A stretch of 64,000 nt of DNA from Parcubacteria group bacterium LiPW_30 (GCA_007375595.1 VMEP01000001.1:479184-543183); one strand, 5' to 3'. Shown: positions 13,258 to 59,048, counted from the first letter of the stretch. Made by a program: numbers and translations. Notes: generated by a model not told the origin, from the sequence alone.

Positions 13258-13660
13258 GGAACGTAAAAAACTGCTGGGAGCAGTTTTGCCAGGACTCGAA
13301 AAGCGGAGCGGGGTACCCATGCACCAGCATGGGTCGCGAGCTGCGGACACGAGAAAAATTTTCGACGGAAAATTTTTACTCGCGGAAGAGTCCTGTACGG
13401 TCCACAATGATTCGCTGAGCACATTGTGTAGTTATTTGTGCGAAGCATCATTGTCAGACCTTACTGATGAGAAAGCCGGAGCGCGACGGCGCGAGTCGGG
13501 TGAGAAAGCGAAGAATGAAGCTTTCGCAAGGTCGGACTGAGCGAAGGCGAAGGAGACGGGGTCGCGGGTTTTGCTAGCAAGCAAAAACCTGTGACCGCAC
13601 AAATTTTCAGCAGAAAATTATGGAAAGTAAAAGGTTGCTATTATTTTTAATAATTACTAA
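13258..13660 (+). other. GC-rich, hairpin-dense non-coding region (candidate structured RNA or degenerate integrated element)
   Basis: No convincing ORF in any frame, only overlapping short ORFs. Multiple stem-loops, including CTGCT-GGG-AGCAG, CCCATGC-ACCA-GCATGGG, AAAATTTTC-GACG-GAAAATTTT and GGTTTTGCT-AGC-AAGCAAAAACC. Contains modules shared with other intergenic loci. Confidence 0.3.
13389..13408 (+). repeat. Exact 20-bp direct repeat of the tRNA-Ala 3' end (GAGTCCTGTACGGTCCACAA, also at 13209-13228)
   Basis: Identical 20-mer 160 bp downstream of the tRNA, the pattern expected of an attL/attR-type remnant. Confidence 0.8.
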
Positions 13661-13669
13661 TATAAACAT

Positions 13670-14443
13670 ATGAAAAAAATATTATCTATATTTGCTTTAA
13701 TCCTTATGTTTGCAGCCGCTGAATCTGCCTACGCGACGCTCATTCCTTATACCTCTCAAGAAAGACCGGAATTGGGTGAGATGTACAAAGTTACGCAGGA
13801 AGTCAAAAAGGGCTGGAATCTCATCCCAGCTTTTAATATGAACTACGACCTTTCTGGTTATGACCGAGGTAGTGTTCCGAAATCTGAATACAAAGCGAGA
13901 GGCCCAATATCTTTTGATAGTGAAATACAAAAGGAAAATATACAAGCATTGTTTTACTACTCAGCTAATCAAAATAAATACTTGAATTTTTGGCCAAATG
14001 TAAACGAGGCGTGGGATGGTATTGGAAAAGATGTCTACGCTTTAGGCATAGACCCAAACAATGAACAAGACACAAAAATTCATAATTACCTTTTGACAAG
14101 CGGAATGTGGTTGTACTCCAACAAAGATGGAATTCTGAAATACGAAATGTTTGCGGGGCAAATGAAGGAGTTAATGAACAAAAGAAAATTACTCAAAGGT
14201 TGGAATTTTGTTGTTGTAACTCCTGACATGGGAACAAAAACTTTTGAAGAAATAGTGGGCACATGCAAAATAGAAAAATCATACTACTACGATAGTGTTG
14301 ATACTAAACAATGGATATCTTTTCCGGTTGATCGCATCAAAGACGCAACAGGGATAGTATGGGTTGTGAAAGTTTCAAATAATTGCCAACTTGGAACGAG
14401 TGGTTCCGTCCCTGTTGCGCCATTACCACAATTGCCAAATTAA
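13670..14443 (+). CDS. Hypothetical secreted protein (257 aa)
   Basis: Signal-peptide-like N-terminus (MKKILSIFALILMFAAAESAYA). No recognisable domain. Confidence 0.5.
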   Translation: MKKILSIFALILMFAAAESAYATLIPYTSQERPELGEMYKVTQEVKKGWNLIPAFNMNYDLSGYDRGSVPKSEYKARGPISFDSEIQKENIQALFYYSANQNKYLNFWPNVNEAWDGIGKDVYALGIDPNNEQDTKIHNYLLTSGMWLYSNKDGILKYEMFAGQMKELMNKRKLLKGWNFVVVTPDMGTKTFEEIVGTCKIEKSYYYDSVDTKQWISFPVDRIKDATGIVWVVKVSNNCQLGTSGSVPVAPLPQLPN

Positions 14444-16096: not shown

Positions 16097-17101
16097 TTAA
16101 TAATAACGATTAATATTTTTAACGTGTTCTTGGTATGTTACAGAGCAGTGGATATTCCTTCTTTTATCGTGTAGATAAAAGAGGCACTCTGTTTTTTTTG
16201 GATTTAATGCAGCTTGGATTGCTGCCATGCTTGGACTTGAGATTGGTGATGGTGGAAGCCCTTTGTTCTGATACGTATTATATGGTGATTCTATGTATTT
16301 GTCTTCAGATAATACTTTTGGCCACCAACCATTTTTCTCAGATCCTTTTGCGTATTGTAATGTTGCGTCAATATCTAAGCTCATTCCGTTGAAAATACGA
16401 TTCCAGATAATCCCCGAAATAAGACGCATATCACGGGTCCCGTTTGATTCACGTTCGATTATTGAGGCTATCTTGAGAGCAGTTTCTATTGAGATTATGG
16501 ATTTGGTTGAACTAGCAAACTTATCAGCAATTTCTTCCTTAAATTCACTTATCATTACCTCAGCAACCTTTTCTGGCGGTGTGTTTTTTTCAAAAGAATA
16601 ACCAGTTGGGAAATAATACCCTTCGGTAAATTTTATATCATCAAGAGCAACCACACTTCTTGTTGTTAGAAAAATATTTTCAGCCTTTGCATCCCAGTTT
16701 AATTTTTTTGCGAGAATGTCGGCAATTTCTTCTTTCCGCATTCCCGGTTGTACACGTATATGTTTAATAGATGGATTTGCAAGCGATGCGACAGAGGAAA
16801 TATTGTCACTTAAAATTTCATAAACCTTCATTGAGATTTCTCGCGCAAGCTGAGCATCTTTATTTTCAGGCTCAAATCGATCGTCAGCAATCGTCTTTTT
16901 TATCGGGTTAACTGTAACAATAAAGTTTTGGTCTGGAGAAAGAGATTCTTTTTTCCCGGCCAGATATAGGATTATTATTGCAACAAAAAATAGTACAAGA
17001 AAAAATCCAGTTGCAATTATTTTTTTACTAAGGAGTTTTGTTTTTTGTTGAGTTCTTGGAATTCTTTTTGATATCCTTTTCGTGGTGGTTCTAGATTTCA
17101 T
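16097..17101 (-). CDS. mltG: Endolytic murein transglycosylase MltG (YceG-like), paralog 1
   Basis: N-terminal TM and a C-terminal YceG signature (SPYNTYQNKGLPPSPISSPS...AALNP...LFYL). Confidence 0.75.
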   Translation of the reverse strand: MKSRTTTKRISKRIPRTQQKTKLLSKKIIATGFFLVLFFVAIIILYLAGKKESLSPDQNFIVTVNPIKKTIADDRFEPENKDAQLAREISMKVYEILSDNISSVASLANPSIKHIRVQPGMRKEEIADILAKKLNWDAKAENIFLTTRSVVALDDIKFTEGYYFPTGYSFEKNTPPEKVAEVMISEFKEEIADKFASSTKSIISIETALKIASIIERESNGTRDMRLISGIIWNRIFNGMSLDIDATLQYAKGSEKNGWWPKVLSEDKYIESPYNTYQNKGLPPSPISSPSMAAIQAALNPKKTECLFYLHDKRRNIHCSVTYQEHVKNINRYY

Positions 17102-21489: not shown

Positions 21490-24324
21490 ATGGAGCAGTA
21501 CGACCACCGAAAAATTGAAAAAAAATGGCAGAAGGTTTGGGAAGAAGAAAATACTTTTGCTACAGACGAAGATTTAAGTAAACCAAAATCTTATATTTTG
21601 GATATGTTTCCATATCCATCAGGAGAGGGTCTTCACACCGGACACGTTAAGGTCTACACGGCGAGTGATATTTACGCACGTTATAAACGAATGAATGGTT
21701 TTCGAGTTCTTCACCCAACAGGGTGGGATGCTTTCGGTTTACCAGCAGAGCGTTTCGCGATAAAACATAAAATTCATCCTCGTGTGGCGGTGGATAATAA
21801 TGTTGCTACTTTTAAACGGCAAATGAAGTCGGTTGGTTTTTCTTATGATTGGGAAAGAGAAATTGATACCACTGATCCAAAGTTTTACAAATGGACGCAG
21901 TGGATGTTTCTTAAAATGTATGAAAAAGGGTTAGCTTACGAGTCTTATCAGCCGATAGTTTGGTGTCCTACGTGTCAGACCGGATTGTCTAACGAGGATT
22001 TGGAGGGCAACGCCTGCGAAATATGTGGAACCGTAGCAGAAAAAAAACTAATGAGACAGTGGGTTATTAAAATTACTGAATATGCAGATAGGTTGGTTGA
22101 GGATTTGGATATTTTGAAAGATTGGCCGGAATCATTTAAAGAAGCGGAAAGAAATTGGATAGGAAAAAGCGAAGGCTCAGAAATAGATTTTAAGATAGAT
22201 GGAATGGATAAAAAATTTACAGTGTTTACGACGCGCGCAGATACCCTTTTTGGTGCGACATATACAGTTCTTTCGCCAGAACATAAATTAGTTGCTGAGT
22301 TAAAATCTAATATTACAAATTGGGATGAAGTTTTGCAGTATCAAAAAATAGCAGGTGAAAAAACGGAGATTGAACGAACATCTGAAGGAAAAGAAAAAAC
22401 GGGGGTGAAATTAGAGGGAATTTTTGCAATTAATCCAGCAAATCAAGACAAGCTTCCGGTTTTTATTGCAGATTATGTTTTAGTTCACTATGGTACTGGG
22501 GCAATTATGGCGGTTCCAGCGCACGATGATAGAGACTATGAATTTGCCAAAAAATTTAATTTACCGATTAAGGTGGTTATCGAGCCTGTTACAGGGGAAG
22601 TTAAGGAAAATGAAGAAAAAAGAAAAAGTATCGTTGCGATAGTTAGAGACCCAAAAAATGGGAAAATCCTATCTCTTAATTGGGGTGAAAAATTTGGTGG
22701 ACAGTTATTTATTGGTGGTGGAATTGAAGACGGAGAAAATGCGGAGAGCACGGCAATTAGGGAAATAAAAGAAGAGACAGGTTATAGCGAGATCCGTTTG
22801 GTTGGAACTTCGGAAACAATTCATCATCATTACTTCGCACATTCAAAAGGGGTGGCAAGGAATATTGATGCTATTGGTTTGCATTTTGAACTAATTGGAA
22901 ATAAACAAGAATTAACATCACAAGACGAATCCGAAAGAGGTAAGTTTAAGGTGGAGTGGATAACAGAAGAGGAGGCCGAGAAAAAAGTGAGTGACCCGCT
23001 ACATCAATATGTGTTTCAAAAATTTATAAAAAATAAAGTGTATACAGGAAATGGAATTCTTACTGAGTCACCTGATTTTAGTGGTTTATCTTCCGAAGAG
23101 GCAAAGATAAAAATAACCAAATTTGTTGGCGGAAAAATGAAAACCACATACAAGCTTCGTGATTGGGTTTTTTCTCGCCAGAGATATTGGGGGGAACCGA
23201 TTCCAATTATTCACTGTGAAAGCTGTGGAGTTGTACCCGTGCCAGAAAAGGATCTGCCGGTTGTTTTGCCGGATGTTAAGGCATATGAGCCAACAGGAAC
23301 GGGGGAATCACCACTTGCTGATATTCCTGAATGGGTAAATACAAAGTGTCCAAAATGTGGAGGTAATGCTAAGCGCGAGACAAATACAATGCCTCAGTGG
23401 GCAGGCTCATCTTGGTATTATTTAAGATTTATCGATCCTAAAAATGATAAGGCCTTAGTAGACGAGAAGAAAGAAAAAAATTGGTCTCCGGTTGATGTTT
23501 ATGTTGGTGGGGCGGAACATGCGACACGGCATCTTATTTATGCCCGCTTCTGGCATAAGTTTTTATATGATTTGGGGATAGTTTCAACCAAAGAGCCATT
23601 CATGCGCCTTGAAAGTGTCGGTCTTATTTTGGCTGGTGGTGGGGTAAAGATGTCTAAGCGTTTAGGCAATATAGTTAATCCCGATGAGATAGTTGAGTTA
23701 TATGGGGCCGACACACTTCGAATTTACGAAATGTTTATGGGACCTTTCGGTCAAGCTAGCGCATGGGACACAAAATCAATAATCGGCCCACGTAGATTTT
23801 TGGAAAGAGTTTGGAAACTACAAGAAAAAATTTCAAGTGATGAAAATTATACCGAAAGTGATAATACGATAATGGTTTTAAATCAGACTATAAAAAAGGT
23901 TGGAGAAGATGTTGAAGAATTTAAGTTTAATACCGCAATAAGCCAAATGATGATTTTAGTGAGCACGCTTGAGTCTGAGGAAAATATCTCTCATAAATCT
24001 TTTAATGAACTGTTGCTTCTTTTATCACCGTTTGCTCCACATTTCGCCGAAGAGTTGTGGGAGATAGTTGGTAACGAAAAATCAATGAATAAGGCTGTTT
24101 GGCCAATCTACGACGAATCTAAATTAACTGGAGGGAAGGTTGTAATTGCAGTGCAGATTAACGGAAAATTGAGAGAGACACTCGAGTTTTTAAGCAACGT
24201 TTCAGAGGATGAAATTAAGGAAGCGGTTATGAATTCTCCTCGTGTTAAATCGTGGATTTTGGATAAAAAAATTAAGAAAACAATATATATAAAAGGAAGA
24301 ATGTTTAGTATTGTTTTGGAGTAA
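21490..24324 (+). CDS. leuS: Leucyl-tRNA synthetase with an embedded Nudix-box domain
   Basis: HTGH and KMSKR class I motifs and CP1 motifs (TRADTLFGATY, GTGAIMAVPAHDDRDYEFA). A roughly 130-aa insert contains a perfect Nudix box, GGIEDGENAESTAIREIKEETGY. Confidence 0.9.
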   Translation: MEQYDHRKIEKKWQKVWEEENTFATDEDLSKPKSYILDMFPYPSGEGLHTGHVKVYTASDIYARYKRMNGFRVLHPTGWDAFGLPAERFAIKHKIHPRVAVDNNVATFKRQMKSVGFSYDWEREIDTTDPKFYKWTQWMFLKMYEKGLAYESYQPIVWCPTCQTGLSNEDLEGNACEICGTVAEKKLMRQWVIKITEYADRLVEDLDILKDWPESFKEAERNWIGKSEGSEIDFKIDGMDKKFTVFTTRADTLFGATYTVLSPEHKLVAELKSNITNWDEVLQYQKIAGEKTEIERTSEGKEKTGVKLEGIFAINPANQDKLPVFIADYVLVHYGTGAIMAVPAHDDRDYEFAKKFNLPIKVVIEPVTGEVKENEEKRKSIVAIVRDPKNGKILSLNWGEKFGGQLFIGGGIEDGENAESTAIREIKEETGYSEIRLVGTSETIHHHYFAHSKGVARNIDAIGLHFELIGNKQELTSQDESERGKFKVEWITEEEAEKKVSDPLHQYVFQKFIKNKVYTGNGILTESPDFSGLSSEEAKIKITKFVGGKMKTTYKLRDWVFSRQRYWGEPIPIIHCESCGVVPVPEKDLPVVLPDVKAYEPTGTGESPLADIPEWVNTKCPKCGGNAKRETNTMPQWAGSSWYYLRFIDPKNDKALVDEKKEKNWSPVDVYVGGAEHATRHLIYARFWHKFLYDLGIVSTKEPFMRLESVGLILAGGGVKMSKRLGNIVNPDEIVELYGADTLRIYEMFMGPFGQASAWDTKSIIGPRRFLERVWKLQEKISSDENYTESDNTIMVLNQTIKKVGEDVEEFKFNTAISQMMILVSTLESEENISHKSFNELLLLLSPFAPHFAEELWEIVGNEKSMNKAVWPIYDESKLTGGKVVIAVQINGKLRETLEFLSNVSEDEIKEAVMNSPRVKSWILDKKIKKTIYIKGRMFSIVLE

Positions 24325-26836: not shown

Positions 26837-27814
26837 ATGATTCCTTTTAAAAATTACGCTTTTTATTCATTGATATCTGGTAAGTGGTGGAGATGGATAG
26901 CCGTTGCTGTACTTTCGATTTTTGTGTTTTTGGGGGTGTATATAATTCCACCATATAATTTTCCTGCACAACATTCTATTGAGATAAAAGAAGGGCTTAC
27001 TCTTTCAGAAACGGCTGATCTTTTGAAAAATGAAAATGTAATTCGTTCACCATTTGTATTTAAGGCATTTGTCTACATTCTTGGTGGAGAACGTGGTGTG
27101 CAAGTTGGGGAATATTTTTTACCGAAACCAGCCAGTGTTGTTAGTTTGTCTTTTAGAATTATAAAAGGTGATTTTGGTTTTGAACCAGTGAAGATAACTT
27201 TTCCCGAAGGCTCGACAATAGCGGAGATGGCAAAAATTGCAGAAAAAAAACTCCCAAGATTTAATGCCGAGGAATTTATTAAATTGACGGAAGGTAAGGA
27301 GGGTTATCTCTTTCCAGATACTTATGTTTTTTACACAAACACAAAAACAGAAAATGTGGCAAATATGTTAGAAGAAAATTTTAAAGTAAAAACAGATACA
27401 CTGAAACGCTCAGCCGAAAAATTAGGCAAAGATTTTAGGGATATTATAATTATGGCTTCAATTATTGAAGAAGAGGCAAGGAAAGAGGAAGACAGAAAAA
27501 TGATTTCTGGGATTTTATGGAAAAGAATTAAGATCGGTATGGCACTACAAGTTGATGCACCTTTTATATATTCAATTGGTAGAAATACCTATGAATTAAC
27601 AAAAAGCGATTTGAGGGGTAATTCGCCATATAACACTTATCAAAATAGAGGTTTGCCGGTTGGACCAATTTCAAATCCAGGAATTTCTTCAATAACAGCA
27701 GCTCTTTATCCTACAGAATCGCCTTATCTTTTCTACCTTTCAGATAAAAATGGTACTGTCTATTACGGGAAGGATTTTGAGGAGCATAAAAGAAATCGGG
27801 AATTATATCTATAA
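26837..27814 (+). CDS. mltG: Endolytic murein transglycosylase MltG (YceG-like), paralog 2
   Basis: SPYNTYQNRGLPVGPISNPG...LFYL signature, with an N-terminal TM. Confidence 0.7.
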   Translation: MIPFKNYAFYSLISGKWWRWIAVAVLSIFVFLGVYIIPPYNFPAQHSIEIKEGLTLSETADLLKNENVIRSPFVFKAFVYILGGERGVQVGEYFLPKPASVVSLSFRIIKGDFGFEPVKITFPEGSTIAEMAKIAEKKLPRFNAEEFIKLTEGKEGYLFPDTYVFYTNTKTENVANMLEENFKVKTDTLKRSAEKLGKDFRDIIIMASIIEEEARKEEDRKMISGILWKRIKIGMALQVDAPFIYSIGRNTYELTKSDLRGNSPYNTYQNRGLPVGPISNPGISSITAALYPTESPYLFYLSDKNGTVYYGKDFEEHKRNRELYL

Positions 27815-49417: not shown

Positions 49418-50342
49418 TGTTTTTAGACCGCTTTTCTGTTAATACGTCGGCGATTTTTATAAAAAATTCTTCGTCTATTTTTTTCTTGTTGTTTACATAT
49501 TCCCAGAAAAAATCTTTACAATAAAAAGCGTATAAATAATAGACTCGGTGAAAACTATAATTATCTTTTTTATTAAACTTTCCATTCAGTAATTCATCTT
49601 TATCTGTAAATTGTTTTGGGTTATATTTTTGTAAATTATAAATACCCTCTTTTTTACCAAGATAACTAAAGTCCCAATTTGAAAATAAATTGGCAAGTAT
49701 TTCTCTTGTTATATAATATCCATTTCCAAATTCCTTTTTTAACAAAAACCAAGATTTATAGAAGTCTTTTTCTCTTGGTCTAAAAATATTTTTTATTTTT
49801 TCTAAAACACGTTCTTTTTCGTGTAAGTGGGCTAGTTCGTGAATTAAATTAATTTTCAAGTTTGAAATATAGTCCTTACTCTTCTTGTTTAGTATATAAA
49901 TATAGATAGAATCTATACTGGAGCTTGCACTAGCACCAACGTTTTTTTTGTCTAAATATGACGGCAAAAGGTATATATTGATATTTTTGACTTTAATACC
50001 ATAAAACCCCTCTATAACTTTTATTGTTTCTTGAACATTAAATTTTTTTATAATATTTTTAGAGAATAGAAAATTTTTACCATTTTTTATTTCAAAATCT
50101 TTTTCTGAAATTATACTTTTTATGTATTCAAAGAGTTTCTCTTCTAACTTTCTATCACTGTCATTTTTTTTAGATAGCAAAGATTTTACTTCTTTTAGGT
50201 TTTTGCGCGTAAAAAATAATTTTTTTATAGCTTGAAACTCTTCTTTTATGAAAGATGGAAGTATTTTGTCATCATTTTCTTTAATAAAATTAAGTACCAA
50301 TCTGTCAACAAAAACCTTATATCCGTAATTTATTTTTATCAT
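49395..50342 (-). CDS. Hypothetical HExxH protein (putative zinc metallopeptidase), extremely AT-rich
   Basis: LIHELAHLHE motif. About 24% GC. Minus strand inside a + strand block, convergent with and overlapping the RNHCP gene by 23 nt. Confidence 0.45.
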   Translation of the reverse strand: MIKINYGYKVFVDRLVLNFIKENDDKILPSFIKEEFQAIKKLFFTRKNLKEVKSLLSKKNDSDRKLEEKLFEYIKSIISEKDFEIKNGKNFLFSKNIIKKFNVQETIKVIEGFYGIKVKNINIYLLPSYLDKKNVGASASSSIDSIYIYILNKKSKDYISNLKINLIHELAHLHEKERVLEKIKNIFRPREKDFYKSWFLLKKEFGNGYYITREILANLFSNWDFSYLGKKEGIYNLQKYNPKQFTDKDELLNGKFNKKDNYSFHRVYYLYAFYCKDFFWEYVNNKKKIDEEFFIKIADVLTEKRSKNIISSTIN

Positions 50343-50380
50343 AATTTAGAAAATCTTTATTTAGGTTATATGTGTTTAAT

Positions 50381-50417
50381 GGCAACGAAAACGGGTAGAA
50401 GCGCAAAACTTCTACCC
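50381..50417 (-). terminator. Intrinsic terminator on the minus strand (GGGTAGAAG-7 nt-CTTCTACCC plus GTTTTCGTT)
   Basis: 9-bp stem, with a T-rich tail in the minus orientation. Confidence 0.55.
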
Positions 50418-50436
50418 GCACGACCAGGCCGAAGGG

Positions 50437-50523
50437 TCAAGCTGGGGGATTCCCCGGATTGTTGCCCTGCTCATCCGCGGGCGTGGAGTCCCAGTCGTCA
50501 TCGCCACCAAACAGCTTTTTCAT
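50437..50523 (-). CDS. Small acidic, Pro/Gly/Asn-rich peptide (28 aa) with a strong Shine-Dalgarno sequence
   Basis: GAGGAG 6 nt before the ATG. Peptide MKKLFGGDDDWDSTPADEQGNNPGNPPA, followed by a terminator. About 60% GC. Divergent from the TPR gene. Confidence 0.35.
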   Translation of the reverse strand: MKKLFGGDDDWDSTPADEQGNNPGNPPA

Positions 50524-50623
50524 TTAAATCTCCTCGTGACCTACCGGTTAAGAAATCCCAACCTTTTAATAGGCCATATAAAGCATGACGTTTTATTTAT
50601 ATTATGTCAACGCCTAGAATCCT

Positions 50624-50664
50624 CGGTATTTTTACGGTATAATTTCGACATGAATTCGCACCGA
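50624..50664 (+). repeat. Left copy of a roughly 40-bp direct repeat covering the promoter-like TATAAT and the first codons of the TPR gene (partner at 55104-55144)
   Basis: GTATTTTTACGGTATAATTT[C/T]GA[C/T]ATGAATTCG[C/T]ACC, with 3 mismatches over about 40 bp. Confidence 0.6.
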
Positions 50665-51690
50665 CCAACAATTATAGTTGATGTTGATCCAGAGTTGTCT
50701 TTTGAAACAAATGGAGTGCTTAGAAAAATATTTAATTTTTTTGAAAATGGAAAATTTCAAACAGCACTTGAGAGCCTTCATAACATTAAAATTAATAGTT
50801 TAAAACCATCAGAACAAGTCATATTAAAACTCTTTACTGGAGAGATCTACGAAAAAATGGGCTATTTTTTAAAGGCGCTACAAAATTACCGCATGGCCCG
50901 CGAACTAGCAGTAAAAATTAAAAAAGTAGATCTCGCAAATGTAGCTAGAATTAAAGTTGGCCGGATTAATATTGCAATGGGACATATTGATGTTGGGTTA
51001 AAGCAACTTAAAAATTTAGCATCGGAGTCAGGTATTTTGCTCAACAATGAATTATTTGCAAATACCCTGAACGCTATTGGGTATGGTTACCGAGTTGCTG
51101 GTAATAGAAAAATGGCGCTCCGATATATTGATATGGCGACTGGTCTTTTTGGAAAAAAACATGATATTTCAATCAAAACAGAATTCGCGGTACTTCATAA
51201 TAAGGCAGGGTTGTTGAGGGAAACATCCAACTATGATGATGCGCTAAAAATTTACTTATTTTTGATTAAAAGGGTGAATAAAAATAATACTTTCTTTCGT
51301 GCTCGATTACTCAACAATATTGGTTTTATTTTCCGCAAACAAGGGCAATATCGGAGGGCTCGGATATATTACACGAAGGCCCATAAACTTGAGCGGGATA
51401 TCAACGCGCGGCAATTACAAGCACGAACCTTAAACAATCTTGGTGGAGTATCAAGAATGGAGGGAGATCTAACCAAGGCTTTGGAGTATTTTAACGAAAG
51501 TGTCCGCATAAGAAAACAGTTACACGATCAATTAGGTCTTTCGTCATCATTACTAAATAAAGGTATACTACTAAAGCAGATGGGTAAGAAAAAAACTGGC
51601 GAAAAGTACCTTATACAAAGCTACAAAATAAGGAAGTTGAGTGGATCGAAGCACATGCTACGTGAAGTATTAGCAGAACTAAAAAATTAA
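50650..51690 (+). CDS. TPR-repeat protein (about 346 aa)
   Basis: Multiple 34-residue TPR-like repeats. Start taken at MNSHRPTIIV, because the ORF-track start at 50536 runs through the GC island. Confidence 0.55.
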   Translation: MNSHRPTIIVDVDPELSFETNGVLRKIFNFFENGKFQTALESLHNIKINSLKPSEQVILKLFTGEIYEKMGYFLKALQNYRMARELAVKIKKVDLANVARIKVGRINIAMGHIDVGLKQLKNLASESGILLNNELFANTLNAIGYGYRVAGNRKMALRYIDMATGLFGKKHDISIKTEFAVLHNKAGLLRETSNYDDALKIYLFLIKRVNKNNTFFRARLLNNIGFIFRKQGQYRRARIYYTKAHKLERDINARQLQARTLNNLGGVSRMEGDLTKALEYFNESVRIRKQLHDQLGLSSSLLNKGILLKQMGKKKTGEKYLIQSYKIRKLSGSKHMLREVLAELKN

Positions 51691-51692
51691 CA

Positions 51693-52442
51693 ATGAGAGG
51701 GATAAACCTAAGAATGCAGAAACTACTACATAGGAAGCAAGTCGTCTTTCTTGCTCTTGATCATGGGTTCTCCATGGGACCAATATATGGTCTTGAAGAC
51801 CTTGGCGCAACAGTTAAAAAACTAGCTCGTTGTGATGTAGATGCGGTGATTCTTCATAGGGGAGCGATTAAGAACTTACCACTAAATACCTTTGAGGGTA
51901 ATTTTCCACCGCTCATAATGCATTTAGCGGGGAGTGATATAAGTAATGGTGTAAATAAATTCTTGACCGCTGATCCATACCAAGCTCTTCTTTTAGGGGC
52001 GGATGCTGTTTCGTTTCAAATTAACATCGGTACACAGAACGAGGAAACACAGATTAAAGAGGCTGTACATTTGATTGAGAGGGCCGACGGTCTCGAGTTA
52101 CCAGTTTTGCTTATGATTTACGATAAAAGAAATCACATAGAGATTGGAGAGCGAATCAGGGGATCTATTCGTTTAAGTATTGAGCTTGGTGCTGATATGG
52201 TAAAAATAGATCCAGGTGATGATTTCCAAGGTCTTCAAGAGGCGATAGGCTACTCTTCAATCCCAGTTTTTATTGCGGGAGGTGAAAAAATGTCGGATGA
52301 AGCTGTTTTTTTGAGAAAAATCCAAAATGGTCTCGGTAGTGGAATCCGCGGTGTTTCGGTGGGAAGGAACATTTTTCAAAATTCAAATGCTATAAATATT
52401 TTGGAAAAGTTATGCGATTTTGTCCATAAATATGAAAAATAA
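51693..52442 (+). CDS. DhnA-type class I aldolase family protein (FbaB / AroA'-like, COG1830)
   Basis: LALDHG N-terminal motif, a candidate Schiff-base lysine in DMVKID, and a length of about 250 aa like archaeal AroA'. Confidence 0.6.
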   Translation: MRGINLRMQKLLHRKQVVFLALDHGFSMGPIYGLEDLGATVKKLARCDVDAVILHRGAIKNLPLNTFEGNFPPLIMHLAGSDISNGVNKFLTADPYQALLLGADAVSFQINIGTQNEETQIKEAVHLIERADGLELPVLLMIYDKRNHIEIGERIRGSIRLSIELGADMVKIDPGDDFQGLQEAIGYSSIPVFIAGGEKMSDEAVFLRKIQNGLGSGIRGVSVGRNIFQNSNAINILEKLCDFVHKYEK

Positions 52443-53598
52443 GAGTTTTGAGATCGTGTTTGTCGAAGTTAATCAACATACGCCAATAGAAATTCGCGAA
52501 CGTCTTAATTATCATAGCACTGAATTAAAACTAATTATAGAGTCTTTGCGCGACGAACCAATTTTACTAGAAAAACTATTCCTGTGCACATGCAATAGGA
52601 GTCTACTTATCTTTATTTGTCATAAAGAAAATCTGAATAACGCAAAAAAACGGTCATTGGAACTTTTTGACCTGTGGGCAAAAATACATATTTCAGAACA
52701 GTATATTCAGTTTTATACTGGACGTAACGCTTTATCGAGGCTTGTCCGCCTTGCCGTTGGTATGGAATCGCCCATTTTTGGTGAAGATCAAATTTTAGGA
52801 CAGATTAAGTTATTTTTTGGAATTTTCCTTAAGCATAAATTAACCGGCCCGATTCTTAATAGAGTATTCCAGCAACTACAATTTATTGCACGAAAAATTA
52901 AACGAAAAATTCCGATTTCAAGAGGAAGGCTTTCACTCTCAGGGTTGGTTATTCAGGAAGTTGAGGGGTTTATAAAAAAAACAGGCCAAGACAAATTGCA
53001 GGTTCTGATTATTGGGTGGGGTGAAATTACCGCTACCATATTTAAGATACTCAATTCAATGAAAGAAATTGAAAAAATCAGCGTCGCAAACCGTACTTTA
53101 AATAAAGTTAATGTGTCATGTGATAAGTTAAAAATAGACAAAGTTGTAGAAATAGCAAAATATTTTGATATCATTGTCAGTATGACCAGTAGATTTGGCT
53201 ATGTTGTAAATTCAGACTGCTTTAGGGATGGAGTCGAAAGGGATATGTTACTTGTAGACCTTGGAGTTCCACGTAACATTGACCCACATTTAGCAAAAAT
53301 ATCGCTAGTAAAGCTTGTTAACATTGATACATTAAATCTTAAGACAATAAAAAATATACGTGGTCGAAAACAACAAATACCACAAGCACAGGTGTATATT
53401 TCTGGATTTCAAGATAAAATGATAAAATTCATTGAGAATTATCAGAAACAACAAAATATTGTCCAGATTCTGAAACAAGCCAAGTCCGTTTATATTCATG
53501 ACCGCAAACTGTTTTTCAGAACTATTAGCCCCAAAAAAAGTAAGCAGATAGTTAATTCTTTTTGCAAAAAAACATACCGAGAAATAATTACTCAGTAA
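52420..53598 (+). CDS. hemA: Glutamyl-tRNA reductase homolog
   Basis: EVNQHTPIEIRERL, the catalytic LCTCNRS motif, GEDQILGQIK, the Rossmann motif IIGWGEIT, ANRT, and LLVDLGVPRNIDP. All align with E. coli HemA. Alternative start at 52432 overlaps the aldolase stop. Confidence 0.75.
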   Translation: MSINMKNKSFEIVFVEVNQHTPIEIRERLNYHSTELKLIIESLRDEPILLEKLFLCTCNRSLLIFICHKENLNNAKKRSLELFDLWAKIHISEQYIQFYTGRNALSRLVRLAVGMESPIFGEDQILGQIKLFFGIFLKHKLTGPILNRVFQQLQFIARKIKRKIPISRGRLSLSGLVIQEVEGFIKKTGQDKLQVLIIGWGEITATIFKILNSMKEIEKISVANRTLNKVNVSCDKLKIDKVVEIAKYFDIIVSMTSRFGYVVNSDCFRDGVERDMLLVDLGVPRNIDPHLAKISLVKLVNIDTLNLKTIKNIRGRKQQIPQAQVYISGFQDKMIKFIENYQKQQNIVQILKQAKSVYIHDRKLFFRTISPKKSKQIVNSFCKKTYREIITQ

Positions 53599-53606
53599 TT
53601 TATATT

Positions 53607-53681
53607 GCCCCTGTCGTTTAGGTAGGACAAGGACGCTAGATTTTCGATCTAGAAACAGAGGTTCGAATCCTCTCAGGGGTA
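53607..53681 (+). tRNA. tRNA-Glu (anticodon TTC)
   Basis: Manual fold: acceptor GCCCCTG/CAGGGGT, anticodon stem CTAGA/TCTAG with loop TTTTCGA, T-arm AGAGG-TTCGAAT-CCTCT. Confidence 0.85.
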
Positions 53682-53708
53682 CTTACAATAAGCAAAAGAA
53701 GTTCAGTT

Positions 53709-55085
53709 ATGAATAAAAATAATGAAAAAATAGTCGTGCGATTCGCCCCATCTCCTACGGGGGTTGTTCATCTTGGAACAGCGAGAACAGCACTTTTTAA
53801 CTTTCTTTTTTCAAAAAAAAATAATGGTAAATATATTTTACGCATTGAGGACACGGATAAAGATAGGTCAAAAAAAGAGTTTGAGGATAATATTTTAGAG
53901 ACGCTTTCGTGGCTTGGTCTTGATTTCGATGAATTATATTACCAATCTAAAAGGGTAGATATCTATAAAAATTATATCCAACAACTTATAACTCGGAATT
54001 TGGCCTATATTTCACAAGAGGGTATATCTGGTAGTGGGGATAATATTGAAAAACGAGATGAGGTTATTAGATTTCGGAATCCGAATAAAATCGTTATGTT
54101 TAAGGACGAACTTCGTGGCAATATTCAATTTGATACAACCGACTTAGGCGATTTCGTTATAGCAAAGAGTTTCGAGGAACCACTCTATAATTTTGCGGTT
54201 GTTGTTGATGATTATGAAATGGGGGTAACGCATATTATCCGAGGAGAAGACCATATACCGAACACACCCAGACAAATACTCATACAAGAAGCAATTGGTG
54301 CTCGGTTACCAATATATATTCATTTACCACTTATTTTAGGAAGGGATCGCTCTAAACTTTCTAAACGAGATGGTGCTCTGCCGGTTTTAGAATATCGAAA
54401 TGCTGGTTATCTACCATCTACCATCGTTAATTATTTAGCTTTTCTTGGGTGGAATCCGGGGAATGACAAAGAAGTACTTACACAAGAGCAACTCATTGAG
54501 TTTTTTGGTATTGAAGGGTTACAAAAATCACCAGCAGTGTTTAATGAAGAAAAAATTGATTGGTTAAACCGAAAGCACATGGCCTTACTTTCCGATGATG
54601 ATTTTGGGAAAGGTGTACTTTCTTTTCTGCCTAAGGAGGTCTGGGGAAGGTATACAAAACTGTCAAAACGCCTACTACCGTTTATCAGGGAGCGCATTTC
54701 TAAATTTGGAGATATTCGAGATAGGTACGACGATGAATGGGTATATTTTTTTGAGCGACCAGAATATTTAATTGATAATTTAATTTACCCACCAAATATT
54801 AAGAAAGGAGAATCTGTGGGAATAATACAAAAGCACCTCTCGTTTATCCTAGATGCATTATCTTCTATTGAGGAAAATGAATTTGATATCGAAAGAATTA
54901 AAGGTCTTGTTTGGAATTACGCCACCGAAAACGACAGAGGTACAGTGCTTTGGCCGATGCGTTTTGCGCTTTCTGGAAAAGAGAAATCTCTCGACCCTTT
55001 TAGTATTGCTGCTATTTTGGGAAAAAAAGAGACATTAGAAAGAATTTCTATAGCAATTAAAAAATTTTCTTATTCATCAGTATAA
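53709..55085 (+). CDS. gltX: Glutamyl-tRNA synthetase
   Basis: Class I HIGH-type motif PSPTGVVHLGTART, a KMSK-like LSKRDG, and an anticodon-binding C-terminus. Confidence 0.9.
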   Translation: MNKNNEKIVVRFAPSPTGVVHLGTARTALFNFLFSKKNNGKYILRIEDTDKDRSKKEFEDNILETLSWLGLDFDELYYQSKRVDIYKNYIQQLITRNLAYISQEGISGSGDNIEKRDEVIRFRNPNKIVMFKDELRGNIQFDTTDLGDFVIAKSFEEPLYNFAVVVDDYEMGVTHIIRGEDHIPNTPRQILIQEAIGARLPIYIHLPLILGRDRSKLSKRDGALPVLEYRNAGYLPSTIVNYLAFLGWNPGNDKEVLTQEQLIEFFGIEGLQKSPAVFNEEKIDWLNRKHMALLSDDDFGKGVLSFLPKEVWGRYTKLSKRLLPFIRERISKFGDIRDRYDDEWVYFFERPEYLIDNLIYPPNIKKGESVGIIQKHLSFILDALSSIEENEFDIERIKGLVWNYATENDRGTVLWPMRFALSGKEKSLDPFSIAAILGKKETLERISIAIKKFSYSSV

Positions 55086-55103
55086 TATGAGGGTTACAAT
55101 CTT

Positions 55104-55144
55104 TAGTATTTTTACGGTATAATTTTGATATGAATTCGTACCAA
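55104..55144 (+). repeat. Right copy of the roughly 40-bp direct repeat. It carries a duplicated start (MNSYQPVMFF-stop, 55130-55162) of the TPR gene
   Basis: Matches 50624-50664. The remnant 10-codon ORF ends in TAG. Confidence 0.6.
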
Positions 55145-55190
55145 CCGGTGATGTTTTTTTAGGACACGAAAAACCCTTACATAAAATAGG

Positions 55191-56536: not shown

Positions 56537-58126
56537 ATGAATCTTTTTTATATTTCAAGCATCCTCATATTTTTTGCAAGTTTAACCTTTGGTTTATTTG
56601 TTTACGTTAATAACACAAAAGCAAAATTAAACAGTTCTTGGTTTTTATTCTCATCCCTTATTGCGTTTTGGGGATTCTCGCTTTATGGAGTAACTTCAGC
56701 TAAAGATGTTGAAACTGCGATGTTGTGGCAATACGCACTTGATGTGATAGCAATTTTTATTCCGGTTCTTTACCTTAATTTTATTTTAAGTTTTCTTTCA
56801 ATTAGAAAAAAATGGTTAATTTTCATTACTTTTATCGTTGGGTTATTTTTAGCCTTTTTAAGCACAACACCACTTTTTAAAATTGGCATTGTAAATAAGT
56901 TTGGTTTTTTCTGGATAAATCCCGGACCTTATTATCTATTGTTCCCAGCTTTTTTTATTGTATGTGTTTTGTTATCTTTAGCCTTTCTTTTTAACTCGTA
57001 CTGGAAACACAAAACTGATAAACGCTTACGCGCACAAATACGCTTACAAATAATCGCCGGGGCTATCGGTTTTAGTGGTGGTATTACGAATTTTCTACCG
57101 CAATTTTTTAATATTTTTCCGTTCGGCAATTATTTTGTTTTGCTTTATATATTTTTTATTAGTTATTCAATTATTAAATATAAGTTTTTTGACCTTAAGA
57201 CCGCCGCGACAGAACTTTTTGCCGGTGGTGTTGTTATTTTATTTTTCTTTAATTTGCTTACCTCGGTTACGTTACAAGATTGGCTTATTAGGGCGTTGCT
57301 CTTAGCTCTGGTTTCATTTTTTAGTATTCTTATTGTTCGCGGTGTTTCAAAAGAAGTTAGGGCTCGCGAACAGATTGAATTACTTGCAGGTGATCTAAAA
57401 AAGGCTAATGATAGACTGCAATTCCTTGATAAACAAAAGTCTGAATTCGTTTCTATCGCATCACATCAACTAAGAAGTCCGCTTACAGCCATTAAGGGGT
57501 ATACATCAATGGTTCTTGAGGGGTCATTTGGTTTTATAGAACCAAAAACAAGAGAGGCTGTTGAGCGCATTTTTCAATCGGCTCAAAATCTTGTTGGGAT
57601 TGTTGATGATTTGCTAAACATTACGCGTCTAGAGCAAGGTAGAATGGAATATTCTTTTGAGAAAGTTGATCTATCAGCATTAACTAAAGAAATTGTTGAT
57701 TCGCTTTATCCAAACGCGCTTAATAAAAAACTCGGACTAACTTTTGAAAACGATAACGCTCAAGATTATTTTGTGAACGCAGATTTATTGAAAATTCGCC
57801 AAGTTGTACTAAATTTAGTTGATAACGCAATAAAATATACAAAGGAAGGATCGGTTAAGGTGAATGTTTCTAGAGATTCTGTGAAAAAAATAATTAAGGT
57901 TATGGTTACAGATTCTGGTGTTGGTATTACTCCGGAATTACGTACGCGACTTTTTGAAAAATTTAGCCGAGGGGATGACGTCAGTAAGCTTCACGCAAAT
58001 GGCACAGGGTTAGGTTTATACATTGCAAAACAAATGATAGAAGCCCACAAAGGTTCAATTGGGGTTAATTCTGAAGGAGAGGGTAAGGGCTCAACATTTT
58101 ATATAGAACTTCCTGCGTTGAATTAA
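56537..58126 (+). CDS. Membrane sensor histidine kinase (orphan in this window)
   Basis: Six TM helices, then a HisKA domain (SHQLRSPLTAI) and HATPase (DNAIKYT...GTGLGLYIAK). Confidence 0.75.
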   Translation: MNLFYISSILIFFASLTFGLFVYVNNTKAKLNSSWFLFSSLIAFWGFSLYGVTSAKDVETAMLWQYALDVIAIFIPVLYLNFILSFLSIRKKWLIFITFIVGLFLAFLSTTPLFKIGIVNKFGFFWINPGPYYLLFPAFFIVCVLLSLAFLFNSYWKHKTDKRLRAQIRLQIIAGAIGFSGGITNFLPQFFNIFPFGNYFVLLYIFFISYSIIKYKFFDLKTAATELFAGGVVILFFFNLLTSVTLQDWLIRALLLALVSFFSILIVRGVSKEVRAREQIELLAGDLKKANDRLQFLDKQKSEFVSIASHQLRSPLTAIKGYTSMVLEGSFGFIEPKTREAVERIFQSAQNLVGIVDDLLNITRLEQGRMEYSFEKVDLSALTKEIVDSLYPNALNKKLGLTFENDNAQDYFVNADLLKIRQVVLNLVDNAIKYTKEGSVKVNVSRDSVKKIIKVMVTDSGVGITPELRTRLFEKFSRGDDVSKLHANGTGLGLYIAKQMIEAHKGSIGVNSEGEGKGSTFYIELPALN

Positions 58127-58234
58127 GCAGGGTTTATTTAGTTTTAAATACGTGCTACCGTTTTTGGTAGGCGTTGATGGTTTAATTGTTGGGAGAATCC
58201 TGACGACATCAATGTTCTTTTTAGGGAGCTTGTC

Positions 58235-58450
58235 ATGGGAAAATGGACTAACGCTGATACCGCAGCCTATAGCGGTGATTCCGCAAGCAAGGTCGCAGAG
58301 GCAGAGCACACTGCACGCGACGACGCAACAAAAGCCGGTGTTTTCGAGCGTGGAAATAGCTCGAAAAACAGCGAGCGCTTTAGTCGAGACGATGAGTCTG
58401 GGCGCGAAGCGACGGGTTTTTGGAACTCGATTTTCGGGTCCAAAAAATGA
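58235..58450 (+). CDS. Small hydrophilic protein (71 aa), GC-rich cassette
   Basis: AGGGAG 6 nt upstream of the ATG, and a terminator downstream. D/E/S/G-rich and stress-protein-like in composition. About 52% GC. Confidence 0.4.
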   Translation: MGKWTNADTAAYSGDSASKVAEAEHTARDDATKAGVFERGNSSKNSERFSRDDESGREATGFWNSIFGSKK

Positions 58451-58465
58451 TGGTTGGGTTTGGCT

Positions 58466-58500
58466 GGGGTGAGTGCTTGCGCTCACCCCTTCATATTTTT
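58466..58500 (+). terminator. Intrinsic terminator (GGGGTGAG-TGCTTGCG-CTCACCCC plus T-tract)
   Basis: 8-bp GC stem followed by TTCATATTTTT. Confidence 0.55.
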
Positions 58501-58511
58501 AATATTGTTGT

Positions 58512-59048
58512 GTGGTAAAATATGTAGAAATGGACAAGATTTATAATATTAAATACGTTGACGCTTCCTATAGTTATGAGGAAAGTATAAATCAAACTAA
58601 GTTAGATTTATTTGAAGCTTATGGATATGTTGAAAAGAATAAAAATAATATTGTCATAACTTTTATAAAAAAACACGGAATATCTGAGGAGAAGCAAAAT
58701 CATGACAAAGAGGTAAACATCATCAACGGCTTAGTGATACCAGATACTTCTTTGGCGTCAATTTCTTCTGCTTATAAAACGAATATTTTAGATAACATTA
58801 AGATAAATTATGCTGTTTCTGTAACATGGCGCGACGTAGTACATGTTGAAAATTTACCAAGATATGATTGTTCTGTTATGTATACAGAAGGAATTTTAGT
58901 TAAAATTGAAAGTGACTACGTTATTTTAAAAGATCCAAAAACTATTCGCACATATCCAACGCCAGTTAAAAATCATCCAGGTAGCGGGCTTCCAACATAC
59001 CTTGTTATACCAATATCATTTATTACTGATATTGAAGTTGTGAAGTAA
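58512..59048 (+). CDS. Hypothetical protein (178 aa)
   Basis: Intact AT-rich ORF with no motif. A start at 58530 (MDKIYN) is also possible. Confidence 0.4.
   Translation: MVKYVEMDKIYNIKYVDASYSYEESINQTKLDLFEAYGYVEKNKNNIVITFIKKHGISEEKQNHDKEVNIINGLVIPDTSLASISSAYKTNILDNIKINYAVSVTWRDVVHVENLPRYDCSVMYTEGILVKIESDYVILKDPKTIRTYPTPVKNHPGSGLPTYLVIPISFITDIEVVK

Follow-up and report, generated by a model that had tools for sequence, protein, structure and literature searches.

A block of genes in the Parcubacteria (Paceibacteria) bacterium LiPW_30 joins a reductase of the heme-pathway type to its own tRNA, to the enzyme that charges this tRNA, and to an unusual aldolase, with heme genes absent nearby. This arrangement points to an undescribed tRNA-dependent pathway in a bacterium with a tiny genome. 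We propose that the block is the form taken in LiPW_30 by an operon that is rare but conserved in Paceibacteria, and that this operon encodes a tRNA-dependent route by which glutamate-1-semialdehyde (GSA) enters an aldol condensation; taken whole, this reading has in our estimation about an even chance of being correct. The block occupies positions 50615-55146 of the window, i.e., the 64-kb stretch of LiPW_30 DNA that was analyzed, and every gene that the original prediction placed between two repeats (a TPR protein, a 249-aa aldolase, a hemA homolog, tRNA-Glu and gltX) is present:

50615..50666, + strand: left copy of a 52-nt direct repeat, with a -35-like TAGAAT, TATAAT (50638-50643), a 6-nt spacer, ATG (50650) and the first five TPR codons
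50650..51690, + strand: TPR protein, 346 aa (Pfam TPR_12, 3e-24)
51693..52442, + strand: putative Schiff-base aldolase (class I), DhnA/ADH-synthase branch, DeoC/DhnA family, 249 aa (PF01791, 1.4e-27)
52432..53598, + strand: divergent glutamyl-tRNA reductase homolog, 388 aa (GlutR_N, PF05201, 1.5e-25; Shikimate_DH, PF01488, 3.4e-19)
53607..53682, + strand: tRNA-Glu(UUC) (ARAGORN; Rfam tRNA, 55.5 bits)
53709..55085, + strand: gltX, glutamate-tRNA ligase (GluRS), 458 aa (TIGR00464, 429.5 bits; cut-off 290)
55095..55146, + strand: right copy of the 52-nt repeat, with the same promoter/start module, 45 nt 5' of acyltransferase-HAD-histidine kinase genes
55130..55162, + strand: 10-codon ORF (MNSYQPVMFF, read from the sequence) beginning at the ATG of the right copy

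The reductase retains the residues that characterize glutamyl-tRNA reductase (GluTR). In an alignment of its clade with canonical GluTRs, the TCNR motif bearing the catalytic Cys (T53, C54, N55, R56) is invariant, as are the GxG/NR NADPH motifs of the Rossmann domain (G195, G197, N220, R221) and the S...GExQILxQ motif (S113, G117, E118, Q120, I121, L122, Q124), to which work on 1GPJ reportedly assigns glutamate recognition. An AF2 model (pLDDT 89) can be superposed on 1GPJ from end to end (TM 0.73) and includes the spinal helix and two terminal helices; the protein is thus predicted to have the GluTR fold. Other features set it apart. Its score against TIGR01035 is 176.9 bits, under the HemA equivalog cut-off of 209.55, and it falls far below the cut-offs of all other GluTR equivalog models. 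PF00745 (GlutR_dimer) matches 0 of 14 clade members, whereas nearly all canonical hits have such a match, and the C-terminus is about 35-40 aa shorter than in canonical enzymes. Further, the position of the canonical active-site His (H84 in M. kandleri numbering), a residue important for GluTR catalysis, is occupied by Lys or Arg in all eight aligned clade members; canonical sequences have His (7 of 8) or Tyr (one). The replacement raises the possibility that the chemistry may differ from that of canonical GluTR.

The most familiar role for such a protein would be in the ordinary C5 pathway, with GSA converted to 5-aminolevulinate and on to tetrapyrroles. The genes for the remaining steps, from hemL on, would then reside at other sites or in a host, and the genes next to the reductase (aldolase, TPR and HAD) would be unrelated to it. 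The conserved catalytic Cys, glutamate and NADPH motifs and the GluTR fold are consistent with this role, and the GluTR family is not known to serve any purpose other than tetrapyrrole synthesis. However, the low score (177 bits vs. the HemA cut-off of 209.6), the lack of PF00745 in all 14 members, the shorter C-terminus and the change of His to Lys/Arg argue against it. The gene neighborhoods do so as well: hemB, hemC, hemD or hemL is found near 122 of 158 canonical GluTR loci but near 0 of 13 cassette loci (local neighborhoods, including the 64-kb window). No HemB/C/D/L homologs were found in the window or at any cassette locus, and a Pfam scan of 50 window ORFs showed no tetrapyrrole families. 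Paceibacteria are also generally described as being without heme synthesis. Finally, the reductase is strictly co-inherited and translationally coupled with a cassette-specific aldolase. We regard the C5 pathway as decidedly unlikely here.

The aldolase gene starts 2 nt past the TPR stop codon. The best-scoring families for its product are NF005556 (185.6 bits, cut-off 241) and TIGR01949 (172.4, cut-off 299.45), with the GriI/BagB/FevI-type family third at 134 bits; the protein lies below every curated cut-off of these families. Its best solved relative is the ADH synthase MJ0400 (5e-37), and the alignment spans residues 6-246. Asp23, Tyr143 and the Lys of DMVKID, whose catalytic roles are taken from PMC2728841, are conserved in the cassette clade, as are the phosphate-binding GG and GRN loops; at the Tyr motif, a clade-specific YDK replaces Y-x-R-G. 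Judging from these residues, the protein should be a class I aldolase TIM barrel with a Schiff-base Lys, a general-base Asp and a proton-donor Tyr. By analogy with its relatives (ADH synthase, and GriI/BagB, which use aspartate semialdehyde), it may accept an alpha-amino aldehyde. No AroB' (dehydroquinate synthase II) or shikimate genes were called within 8 kb of any cassette, nor did the Pfam scan of 50 window ORFs reveal AroB'. A glycolytic fructose-bisphosphate aldolase (FBA), raised as an alternative in the original prediction, was rejected: the protein scores 91.8 bits against the archaeal class I FBA model NF040816 (cut-off 430), well below its ADH-synthase scores, and 38 bits against the FBA model NF006704 (cut-off 277), and it belongs to a narrow clade co-conserved with the reductase beside it. 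Only about 14 close homologs exist among 5.8 billion proteins, and every one with a readable context adjoins the reductase. This clade of about 14 clusters is found only with the reductase, and its size equals that of the reductase clade, not the breadth of Paceibacteria.

A new observation is that these genes form a conserved cassette. The order (HAD-IIB phosphatase-)TPR, aldolase and GluTR-like reductase recurs at seven further loci and on two partial contigs. Start and stop codons within the cassette overlap or nearly touch. In LiPW_30, the reductase ATG (52432) lies within the aldolase gene, so that the two genes share 11 nt; an overlap had been predicted, and it is conserved across cassettes at 11-38 nt. 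The outer flanks are unrelated in every cassette locus. The clade occurs in 2 of 185,579 species genomes (GTDB). An exhaustive search of 1.84 billion entries with the reductase yielded only three representatives above 570 bits; the next hit scored 264, and canonical GluTRs scored 212 or less. With about 14 clusters each, the clades of the aldolase and of the reductase match in their small size, and score gaps set both apart from every other homolog. Pairwise identities of the reductase, aldolase and TPR proteins correlate (r 0.74-0.91). As for canonical GluTR loci, tRNA-Glu was found within 8 kb of 0 of 60, and a cassette-type aldolase near 0 of 158. The central idea of the original prediction, that a functional link unconnected with tetrapyrroles joins the reductase, aldolase, tRNA-Glu and GluRS, thus gains support from conservation in eight lineages and two partial contigs, from congruent protein divergence, and from clean negative controls in the 158 canonical loci.

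All of the examples come from one narrow lineage, and part of the conservation could therefore reflect inheritance rather than selection; inheritance as the only cause is disfavored by the reshuffled flanks and gltX positions. A rival reading is that the clustering is a matter of chance or housekeeping, with an archaeal-type class I FBA and a HAD sugar-bisphosphatase kept beside translation genes by phylogenetic inertia. The DhnA family does include bona fide FBAs, the archaeal class I model gives 92 bits, and all of the examples share one lineage. Yet this score is far short of the FBA cut-off (430) and is much lower than those obtained with ADH-synthase models, the close homologs of the aldolase are as few as those of the reductase and do not match the breadth of Paceibacteria, the cassette is intact while its flanks are completely reshuffled, and no such aldolase occurs at any of the 158 canonical loci. 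The probability of chance clustering is very small indeed.

The tRNA-Glu gene begins 8 nt past the reductase stop codon. The tRNA, which was aligned with those of six other cassettes, features a 4-nt variable loop of canonical type, G1-U72 and A73, and CCA is not encoded. In every locus that reaches this point, a tRNA-Glu lies directly 3' of the reductase, about 10 nt away or overlapping its called end; the anticodon is CUC in one locus, and NUDIX and GluRS genes usually accompany the tRNA. No tRNA-Glu was found beside gltX in the cassette-less relatives having the closest gltX. The LiPW_30 gltX itself encodes an ordinary Paceibacteria housekeeping GluRS rather than a dedicated one, as more than 100 Patescibacteria GluRS proteins form a continuum with it at 50-56% identity. 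Cassette GluRS proteins are of two types that are only about 30% identical and are encoded either upstream or downstream; GluRS was recruited at least twice. The LiPW_30 LeuRS carries a NUDIX insertion, and a different NUDIX adjoins gltX in cassette-less relatives. The NUDIX protein has no role in the scheme that we propose, and these facts suggest that it may belong with the aminoacyl-tRNA synthetases instead.

The LiPW_30 TPR protein matches the C-terminal half of a HAD-IIB phosphatase-TPR fusion present in the other cassettes (37-53% identity to the TPR halves, with RTLNNLGG and GLSSSLLNKGI invariant in the alignment). Its phosphatase domain is deleted, and its first 20 or so residues are new. 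Where present, the HAD domain retains DxDxT and is sucrose-phosphatase-like. The ancestral unit therefore differs from the block as first described, in that it includes the HAD-IIB domain and a NUDIX gene, both of which have been lost in LiPW_30. Because the LiPW_30 cassette is without a phosphatase domain, the dephosphorylation step would be either dispensable or supplied in trans.

This loss bears on the direct repeat. As the original prediction held, the repeat duplicates the TATAAT promoter region and the first TPR codons. It is present at both sites over 52 nt, with 85% identity, a spacing of 4480 and three mismatches in a 34-nt core. Each copy comprises a -35-like hexamer, TATAAT, the 6-nt spacer, ATG and five codons, and the geometry of the left copy suggests a leaderless-type promoter/start module. 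The 10-codon ORF assigned to the right copy was read directly at 55130-55162; it represents a remnant or else a mini-leader. Within the window, the repeat is restricted to these two sites (0 matches in 100 shuffles). The independent assembly of a 99.4%-identical strain has both copies at the same spacing, and so the repeat is not an assembly artifact. The left copy lies inside a strain-hypervariable patch (50526-50718).

The repeats had also been taken as a sign that the block moved as a unit, and this claim did not hold. The comparison with related genomes located the cassette, but none of the other cassettes has the 52-nt repeat. No integrase, transposase or recombinase gene lies in the block, and the GC content of the block is genome-like (35.9% vs. 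37.1% for the window). A mobile or integrated element bounded by the repeats was rejected on these grounds; with respect to presence/absence polymorphism, the one other strain examined has an identical structure. Our preferred reading of the repeat is a promoter-plus-start module that was duplicated in connection with the loss of the HAD domain, rather than a mobile-element boundary. One copy of this promoter-plus-ATG module would have given the truncated, HAD-less TPR gene a new 5' end, and the other would drive the downstream acyltransferase/HAD-IB genes. The two acyltransferase genes said to flank the block do exist, but they are merely 26% identical and are distant superfamily relatives; we rejected them as a duplicated bracket around it.

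The genes, the residues they conserve, and the conserved cassette with its specificity are observations; from them, we infer the following substrates, order of steps and product. The ancestral operon would have encoded a HAD-IIB sugar-phosphate phosphatase-TPR fusion, an ADH-synthase-like class I aldolase, the divergent reductase, tRNA-Glu, a NUDIX hydrolase and GluRS; LiPW_30 has lost the HAD domain and NUDIX. GluRS would charge the co-transcribed tRNA-Glu, and the reductase Cys would attack Glu-tRNA and, using NADPH, release GSA. Rather than passing to a HemL-type aminomutase, this unstable amino-aldehyde would be captured by the translationally coupled aldolase. The Lys of the aldolase would form a Schiff base with the donor, a ketose phosphate such as DHAP, and a C-C bond would then be made. 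This would yield an amino-deoxy keto-sugar acid phosphate, with eight carbons (C8) in the case of DHAP, from which the HAD-IIB domain would remove the phosphate. The TPR domain probably serves to assemble the enzymes, comparable to the binding of GluTR by the plant TPR protein FLU.

Canonical GluTR also has esterase activity. A GluTR-like protein and its TPR partner could thus form a regulatory or quality-control module that senses or deacylates Glu-tRNA(Glu). A sugar-phosphate module (aldolase and phosphatase) would in this way respond to the status of glutamate or of translation, with no shared intermediate. Such a regulatory role would account for tRNA-Glu and GluRS being tied to the cassette more strictly than any metabolic gene, for the NUDIX-synthetase links seen in the lineage, and for the replacement of a His important for GluTR catalysis. 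The conserved TPR partner has a precedent in FLU (PMC4726326). On the other hand, a sensor or esterase does not readily explain the invariant NADPH motifs (G195, G197, N220, R221), the 11-38 nt aldolase-reductase overlap is conserved, and the aldolase clade occurs solely together with the reductase. We judge such a module unlikely.

Alternatively, the enzyme could transfer glutamate rather than reduce it. The Cys-glutamyl thioester is an established intermediate of GluTR chemistry; if it were attacked by an amine or hydroxyl of a sugar phosphate made by the aldolase, a glutamylated sugar would result and then be dephosphorylated. The Lys/Arg replacement and shortened C-terminus suggest an altered second half-reaction, and other tRNA-dependent glutamyl transfers exist, as in LanB-type dehydratases. 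But the NADPH domain is fully conserved, motifs included, and the closest characterized relatives of the aldolase take amino-aldehyde acceptors, which fits GSA (PMC2728841). Glutamyl transfer is, in our view, quite improbable, and we retain reduction to GSA followed by aldol condensation as the preferred scheme.

The reductase resembles GluTR (HemA, EC 1.2.1.70; M. kandleri 1GPJ, Arabidopsis 4N7R) in its modeled three-domain fold (TM 0.73 to 1GPJ), its TCNR nucleophile, its S...GExQILxQ and GxG/NR(T) NADPH motifs, and its physical linkage to the genes for its substrate. It differs in its score below the TIGR01035 cut-off, its lack of a PF00745 match, its length (shorter by about 35-40 residues), its Lys/Arg in place of His, and its surroundings: it is never beside hemB/C/D/L (122 of 158 canonical genes are), and it has a tRNA-Glu after it (0 of 60 canonical) and an aldolase before it (0 of 158).

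GriI condenses an amino-acid semialdehyde with a ketose phosphate, and ADH synthase (AroA', MJ0400) carries out the same kind of condensation (PMC2728841). The cassette aldolase is like these proteins, including GriI/BagB/FevI of the 3,4-AHBA pathways, in that they are its best-scoring families and share the Asp/Tyr/Lys set and phosphate loops. It departs from them in its sub-cut-off scores, its YDK motif and the absence of AroB'/shikimate genes nearby. Further, its partner is a tRNA-dependent reductase, and thus its presumed aldehyde is GSA, an alpha-amino aldehyde, not aspartate semialdehyde.

In plants, the TPR domain of FLU binds the dimerization domain of GluTR (5CHE; PMC4726326). The cassette likewise has a TPR protein specifically associated with a GluTR; the association is physical in plants (PMC4726326), and genetic and co-evolving (r 0.74) here. 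[quoted passage not shown]

In LanB-type glutamylation/dehydration, Glu-tRNA(Glu) is diverted from translation to small-molecule chemistry, and tRNA-Glu or GluRS genes lie in the cluster. The cassette uses another enzyme family and has no peptide substrate gene, its proposed reaction is reduction to an aldehyde rather than glutamyl transfer to Ser/Thr, and its host is a minimal-genome, symbiont-type bacterium. What it would share with LanB-type systems is the diversion of Glu-tRNA, along with tRNA or synthetase genes located in the cluster.

To our knowledge, glutamyl-tRNA reductase (GluTR) is, in textbook accounts, exclusive to tetrapyrrole synthesis. The genes described here could be a departure from that rule: it is possible, with a chance that we put somewhat short of even, that they form a cassette encoding a new tRNA-dependent pathway. 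In LiPW_30, the block comprises the following features.

50650-51690, + strand: TPR gene
51693-52442, + strand: DeoC/DhnA-family aldolase gene
52432-53598, + strand: GluTR homologue (reductase) gene
53607-53682, + strand: tRNA-Glu(UUC)
53709-55085, + strand: gltX

The original prediction had placed the reductase, aldolase, tRNA-Glu and gltX together, and all are indeed present on the + strand with short gaps or overlaps. Only 2 nt separate the TPR stop from the aldolase start; the ATG of the reductase lies inside the end of the aldolase gene, giving the expected overlap (11 nt); the tRNA-Glu begins 8 nt beyond the stop codon of the reductase; gltX follows it after 27 nt. Because no terminator-like sites were found within the block, it is likely transcribed as one unit.

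A comparison of gene neighbourhoods, which had been suggested as a check, recovered the block as a conserved cassette in further loci, with the gene orders listed here.

L001/2 and L007: HAD-IIB-TPR fusion, aldolase, reductase, tRNA-Glu(UUC), NUDIX, long GluRS (L001, 9729-11402; L007, 9810-11441)
L008/9: HAD and TPR as two genes, aldolase, reductase, tRNA-Glu(UUC), NUDIX, long GluRS (L008, 4754-6427)
L006: HAD-TPR, aldolase, reductase, tRNA-Glu(UUC), short GluRS, NUDIX
L003: HAD-TPR, aldolase, reductase, tRNA-Glu(UUC), NUDIX; GluRS absent
L004/5: HAD-TPR, aldolase, reductase, tRNA-Glu(CUC), NUDIX; GluRS absent
P0123 contig (partial): long GluRS, HAD-less TPR, aldolase, reductase, then contig end
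L090 (partial): HAD-TPR, aldolase, reductase

The genes flanking the cassette differ from locus to locus, overlaps of 4-38 nt between cassette genes are usual, and the pairwise identities of the reductase, aldolase and TPR proteins co-vary (r 0.80, 0.74 and 0.91). The HAD domain carries a DxDxT motif and is sucrose-phosphatase-like, and the NUDIX box is intact in every cassette copy. The TPR protein of LiPW_30 aligns with the C-terminal half of the HAD-TPR fusion and is missing the phosphatase domain; its first ~20 residues have no counterpart in the fusions. Searches with HMMs built from the relatives found no cassette-type HAD or NUDIX in the whole 64-kb window, and these components are thus either lost or located elsewhere in LiPW_30. 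At L006 (3426-4233 and 4319-5428), the aldolase is frameshifted into two ORFs and the reductase lacks its N-terminus, which would reflect either decay of that cassette or an assembly error.

The reductase is a GluTR homologue whose motifs suggest that it works like GluTR. Its GlutR_N and NADPH domains are matched, GlutR_dimer is not, and it scores 177 bits on TIGR01035 (cut-off 209.6). Alignment with canonical GluTRs shows that TCNR, S...GExQILxQ, GxG and NR are kept. An AlphaFold model (pLDDT 89.4) superposes over its full length on the Methanopyrus kandleri GluTR, with TM scores of 0.73/0.71. The canonical His is Lys or Arg in every reductase of the cassette clade, and the C-terminus is ~35-40 residues shorter than that of canonical GluTR.

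The best solved relative of the aldolase is the 2-amino-3,7-dideoxy-D-threo-hept-6-ulosonate (ADH) synthase MJ0400 (5e-37). Among NCBIfam models, the order is ADH synthase (186/172 bits), BagB/FevI (134) and LsrF (101), with the protein below cut-off in every model ranked; archaeal class I FBA follows with 92 bits. The alignment shows retention of three catalytic residues (Asp, Tyr and the Lys that forms the Schiff base) and of the GG and GRN loops that bind phosphate, with residue roles taken from PMC2728841. Where ADH-synthase-like proteins have Y-x-R-G, the cassette aldolases have a clade-specific YDK. Separately, three Desulfovibrionaceae proteins in the same alignment (P0201, P0213 and P0224; alignment A5), of which two bear an ADH synthase annotation and the third is called a class I FBA, have Cys or Ala at the Schiff-base Lys position, so that the standard class I mechanism is impossible there.

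By its sequence, the product of the window's gltX is a normal bacterial housekeeping GluRS: it scores 429 bits (cut-off 290) and falls within a continuum of >100 Patescibacteria GluRS at 50-56% identity. The long GluRS is the cassette-linked synthetase in most lineages (543-559 aa; TIGR00464, 321 bits) and might be a dedicated second GluRS. As it is only ~30% identical to the short housekeeping form, gltX was recruited to the cassette at least twice. Among the closest relatives of the window GluRS (72-56% identity), gltX adjoins neither the cassette nor a tRNA-Glu; it is therefore the tRNA-Glu that travels with the reductase, and gltX that was recruited.

Canonical GluTR loci look different. 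None of 60 such loci from other phyla has a tRNA-Glu within 8 kb. In a set of 158, the cassette-type aldolase, HAD and NUDIX are all absent, three loci have gltX, and 122 carry at least one of HemB, HemC, HemD and HemL. None of the last four was found at the 13 cassette loci, the whole 64-kb window included, and Pfam searches of 50 window ORFs returned housekeeping families only. The Hem queries came from two MAG contigs with canonical GluTR, L020 (GC 59%) and L038, labelled Patescibacteria/Saccharimonadales, which carry full hemA-hemC-hemB-hemL operons, with hemD confirmed too in L020. We do not take these contigs as evidence for heme synthesis in CPR bacteria, as they are probably mis-binned soil contigs, and they have no bearing on the cassette clade.

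The cassette is rare. Among 5.8 billion clustered proteins, the reductase has ~13 close relatives at 41-62% identity, after which E-values step from 1e-75 to 1e-31 (the canonical GluTRs); the aldolase likewise has ~13 relatives and then a score gap. The clade occurs in two of 185,579 GTDB species genomes. When 1.84 billion representatives were searched exhaustively with HMMER, three matched at 570-592 bits and then P0361 at 264, with canonical GluTRs at 212 or less; a metagenome scan with the clade profile gave only canonical GluTRs among the matches listed and added no cassette loci. P0361, from a high-GC organism, is a sister of the reductase clade that shares its GWG and GVPRNIDP motifs and has CSCER in place of CTCNR. 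The sole source of P0361, as of the divergent cassette-type aldolase P0134, is a 5,237-bp Logan contig, and the two are probably on the same contig. The cassette examples read all come from one lineage; this pairing, if true, would reach beyond the AT-rich Paceibacteria. No paper in the literature searched ties GluTR to Patescibacteria, Parcubacteria or CPR bacteria.

The direct repeat that brackets the LiPW_30 block is real: it spans 52 nt at 85% identity, is unique in the window, was never reached in shuffles, and recurs at the same spacing in a second strain, 99.4% identical over 9 kb and independently assembled (L175). In each copy, a -35-like hexamer, TATAAT, 6 nt and ATG are arranged as in a leaderless start. 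From the left copy come the promoter and a new 5' end for the truncated TPR gene. The right copy lies 45 nt upstream of acyltransferase, HAD-IB and histidine-kinase genes and opens the 10-codon ORF noted earlier. In the simplest history, a duplication junction would have joined the promoter/start module to the TPR half, with the HAD part lost afterwards. The original prediction had taken the repeats to suggest that the block moved or was duplicated as a unit. We reject a mobile element: the block has no recombinase gene, its GC content is native (35.9% vs 37.1%), and other cassettes lack the repeat. The flanking acyltransferases, which had been called paralogues, are only 26% identical to each other. 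Nor is the repeat a common motif; unique in the window, its core has no match in any fetched locus, and it is thus neither cassette-wide nor lineage-wide. Over 9 kb, 35 of the 56 differences between L175 and the window lie in 50526-50718 (~190 nt, the left copy and the TPR 5' end). Further, L175 carries 3.4 kb that the window lacks, with genes for radical SAM, PNP_UDP_1 and ABC ATPase proteins, at 49410/49431, between the RNHCP and 315-aa genes and 1 kb upstream of the left boundary. This clustering and the nearby indel identify the left boundary of the block as a recombination hot spot.

Other features of the window merit mention. A 180-nt patch between the 315-aa and TPR genes (50380-50560, - strand) reaches 55-62% GC, against 37% for the genome. 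It bears a GGAG Shine-Dalgarno sequence and a 28-codon ORF (MKKLFGGDDDWDSTPADEQGNNPGNPPA), which is followed on the - strand by a terminator with a 12-bp stem (50419-50391), ~50 nt ahead of the 315-aa gene, whose product contains HExxH. Its predicted RNA fold (-88.4 kcal/mol, z -4.6) is matched by no Rfam family even at E<=1, and the patch could be a leader, a riboswitch or a small-protein gene. In the 13153-13610 region, a tRNA-Ala(UGC) has a terminator hairpin downstream. The 3' end of this tRNA (GAGTCCTGTACGGTCCACAA, 13209-13228) has an exact second copy that starts 179 nt on (13388-13407), in a 380-nt, 60% GC intergenic stretch without an Rfam match; it resembles either the att-type scar left by an integrated element or an RNA of no known family. 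A third patch (58211-58490, 57% GC) is intergenic, with the histidine kinase gene on one side and the next ORF on the other. Rfam searches of 50300-50680, 13100-13700 and 58100-58540 returned no family except the tRNA, and the three patches have no sequence in common. Two YceG (MltG-like) paralogues, at 16097-17101 (-) and 26837-27814 (+), are less than 10 kb apart in this very small genome.

Our proposal for the cassette draws on its coupled, conserved operon, on a reductase with nucleophile, glutamate and NADPH motifs intact, on a Schiff-base aldolase with an intact phosphate site, on a sugar-phosphate phosphatase, and on the presence of the substrate tRNA and its synthetase. The reductase would reduce Glu-tRNA(Glu) to glutamate-1-semialdehyde (GSA), the aldolase would join GSA to a phosphorylated ketose donor, and the HAD phosphatase would remove the phosphate from the resulting amino-deoxy keto-sugar acid phosphate. 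The product of the AroA' transaldol reaction carries no phosphate. Given that a phosphatase is present, a GriI-like direct aldol reaction with DHAP fits better than an AroA'-type transaldol. The TPR protein could be a scaffold or regulator, by analogy to the interaction of the plant protein FLU with GluTR (PMC4726326); a specific kinship to FLU was discarded, as only generic and designed TPR proteins were matched. The NUDIX protein has no clear role in this scheme and may belong with the synthetase. Elsewhere in the window, LeuRS (21490-24324, +, 944 aa) has a NUDIX domain (PF00293, residues 378-508, E 1.8e-13) inserted right after its editing domain, an unusual aaRS-NUDIX fusion that may explain the NUDIX gene beside tRNA-Glu and gltX in the cassettes. 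In the cassette-less relatives L171/172, an unrelated NUDIX gene adjoins gltX.

Taken as a whole, TPR-channelled GSA, aldol addition and dephosphorylation would form a complete tRNA-dependent pathway of its own in minimal-genome, heme-less Paceibacteria, and the first non-tetrapyrrole use of GluTR; we advance this reading tentatively, as one slightly more apt to fail than to hold. With a GluTR-family enzyme acting alongside its tRNA, its synthetase and an aldolase of the amino-aldehyde type, tRNA-dependent metabolism, primary or secondary, would gain a new class. The hosts have ~0.7-Mb genomes with no heme genes near the cassette, and the pathway would show that ultra-reduced CPR bacteria keep at least one dedicated, unusual biosynthetic route. 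The cassette would also be a natural system for the handover of the very unstable GSA without HemL. Its product, if the scheme is true, would be a new amino-deoxy keto-sugar acid that could cyclise to an iminosugar-like compound, with possible roles as, for example, a surface glycan, signal or inhibitor.

Both central enzymes resemble known systems without coinciding with them. The reductase stands apart from HemA in its equivalog score, its substituted His, its unmatched dimerisation domain and its pathway context. The nearest characterised relatives of the aldolase join amino-acid semialdehydes to ketose phosphates; the cassette enzyme is akin to AroA' and GriI, but it falls under their cut-offs and has no partner genes of theirs nearby.
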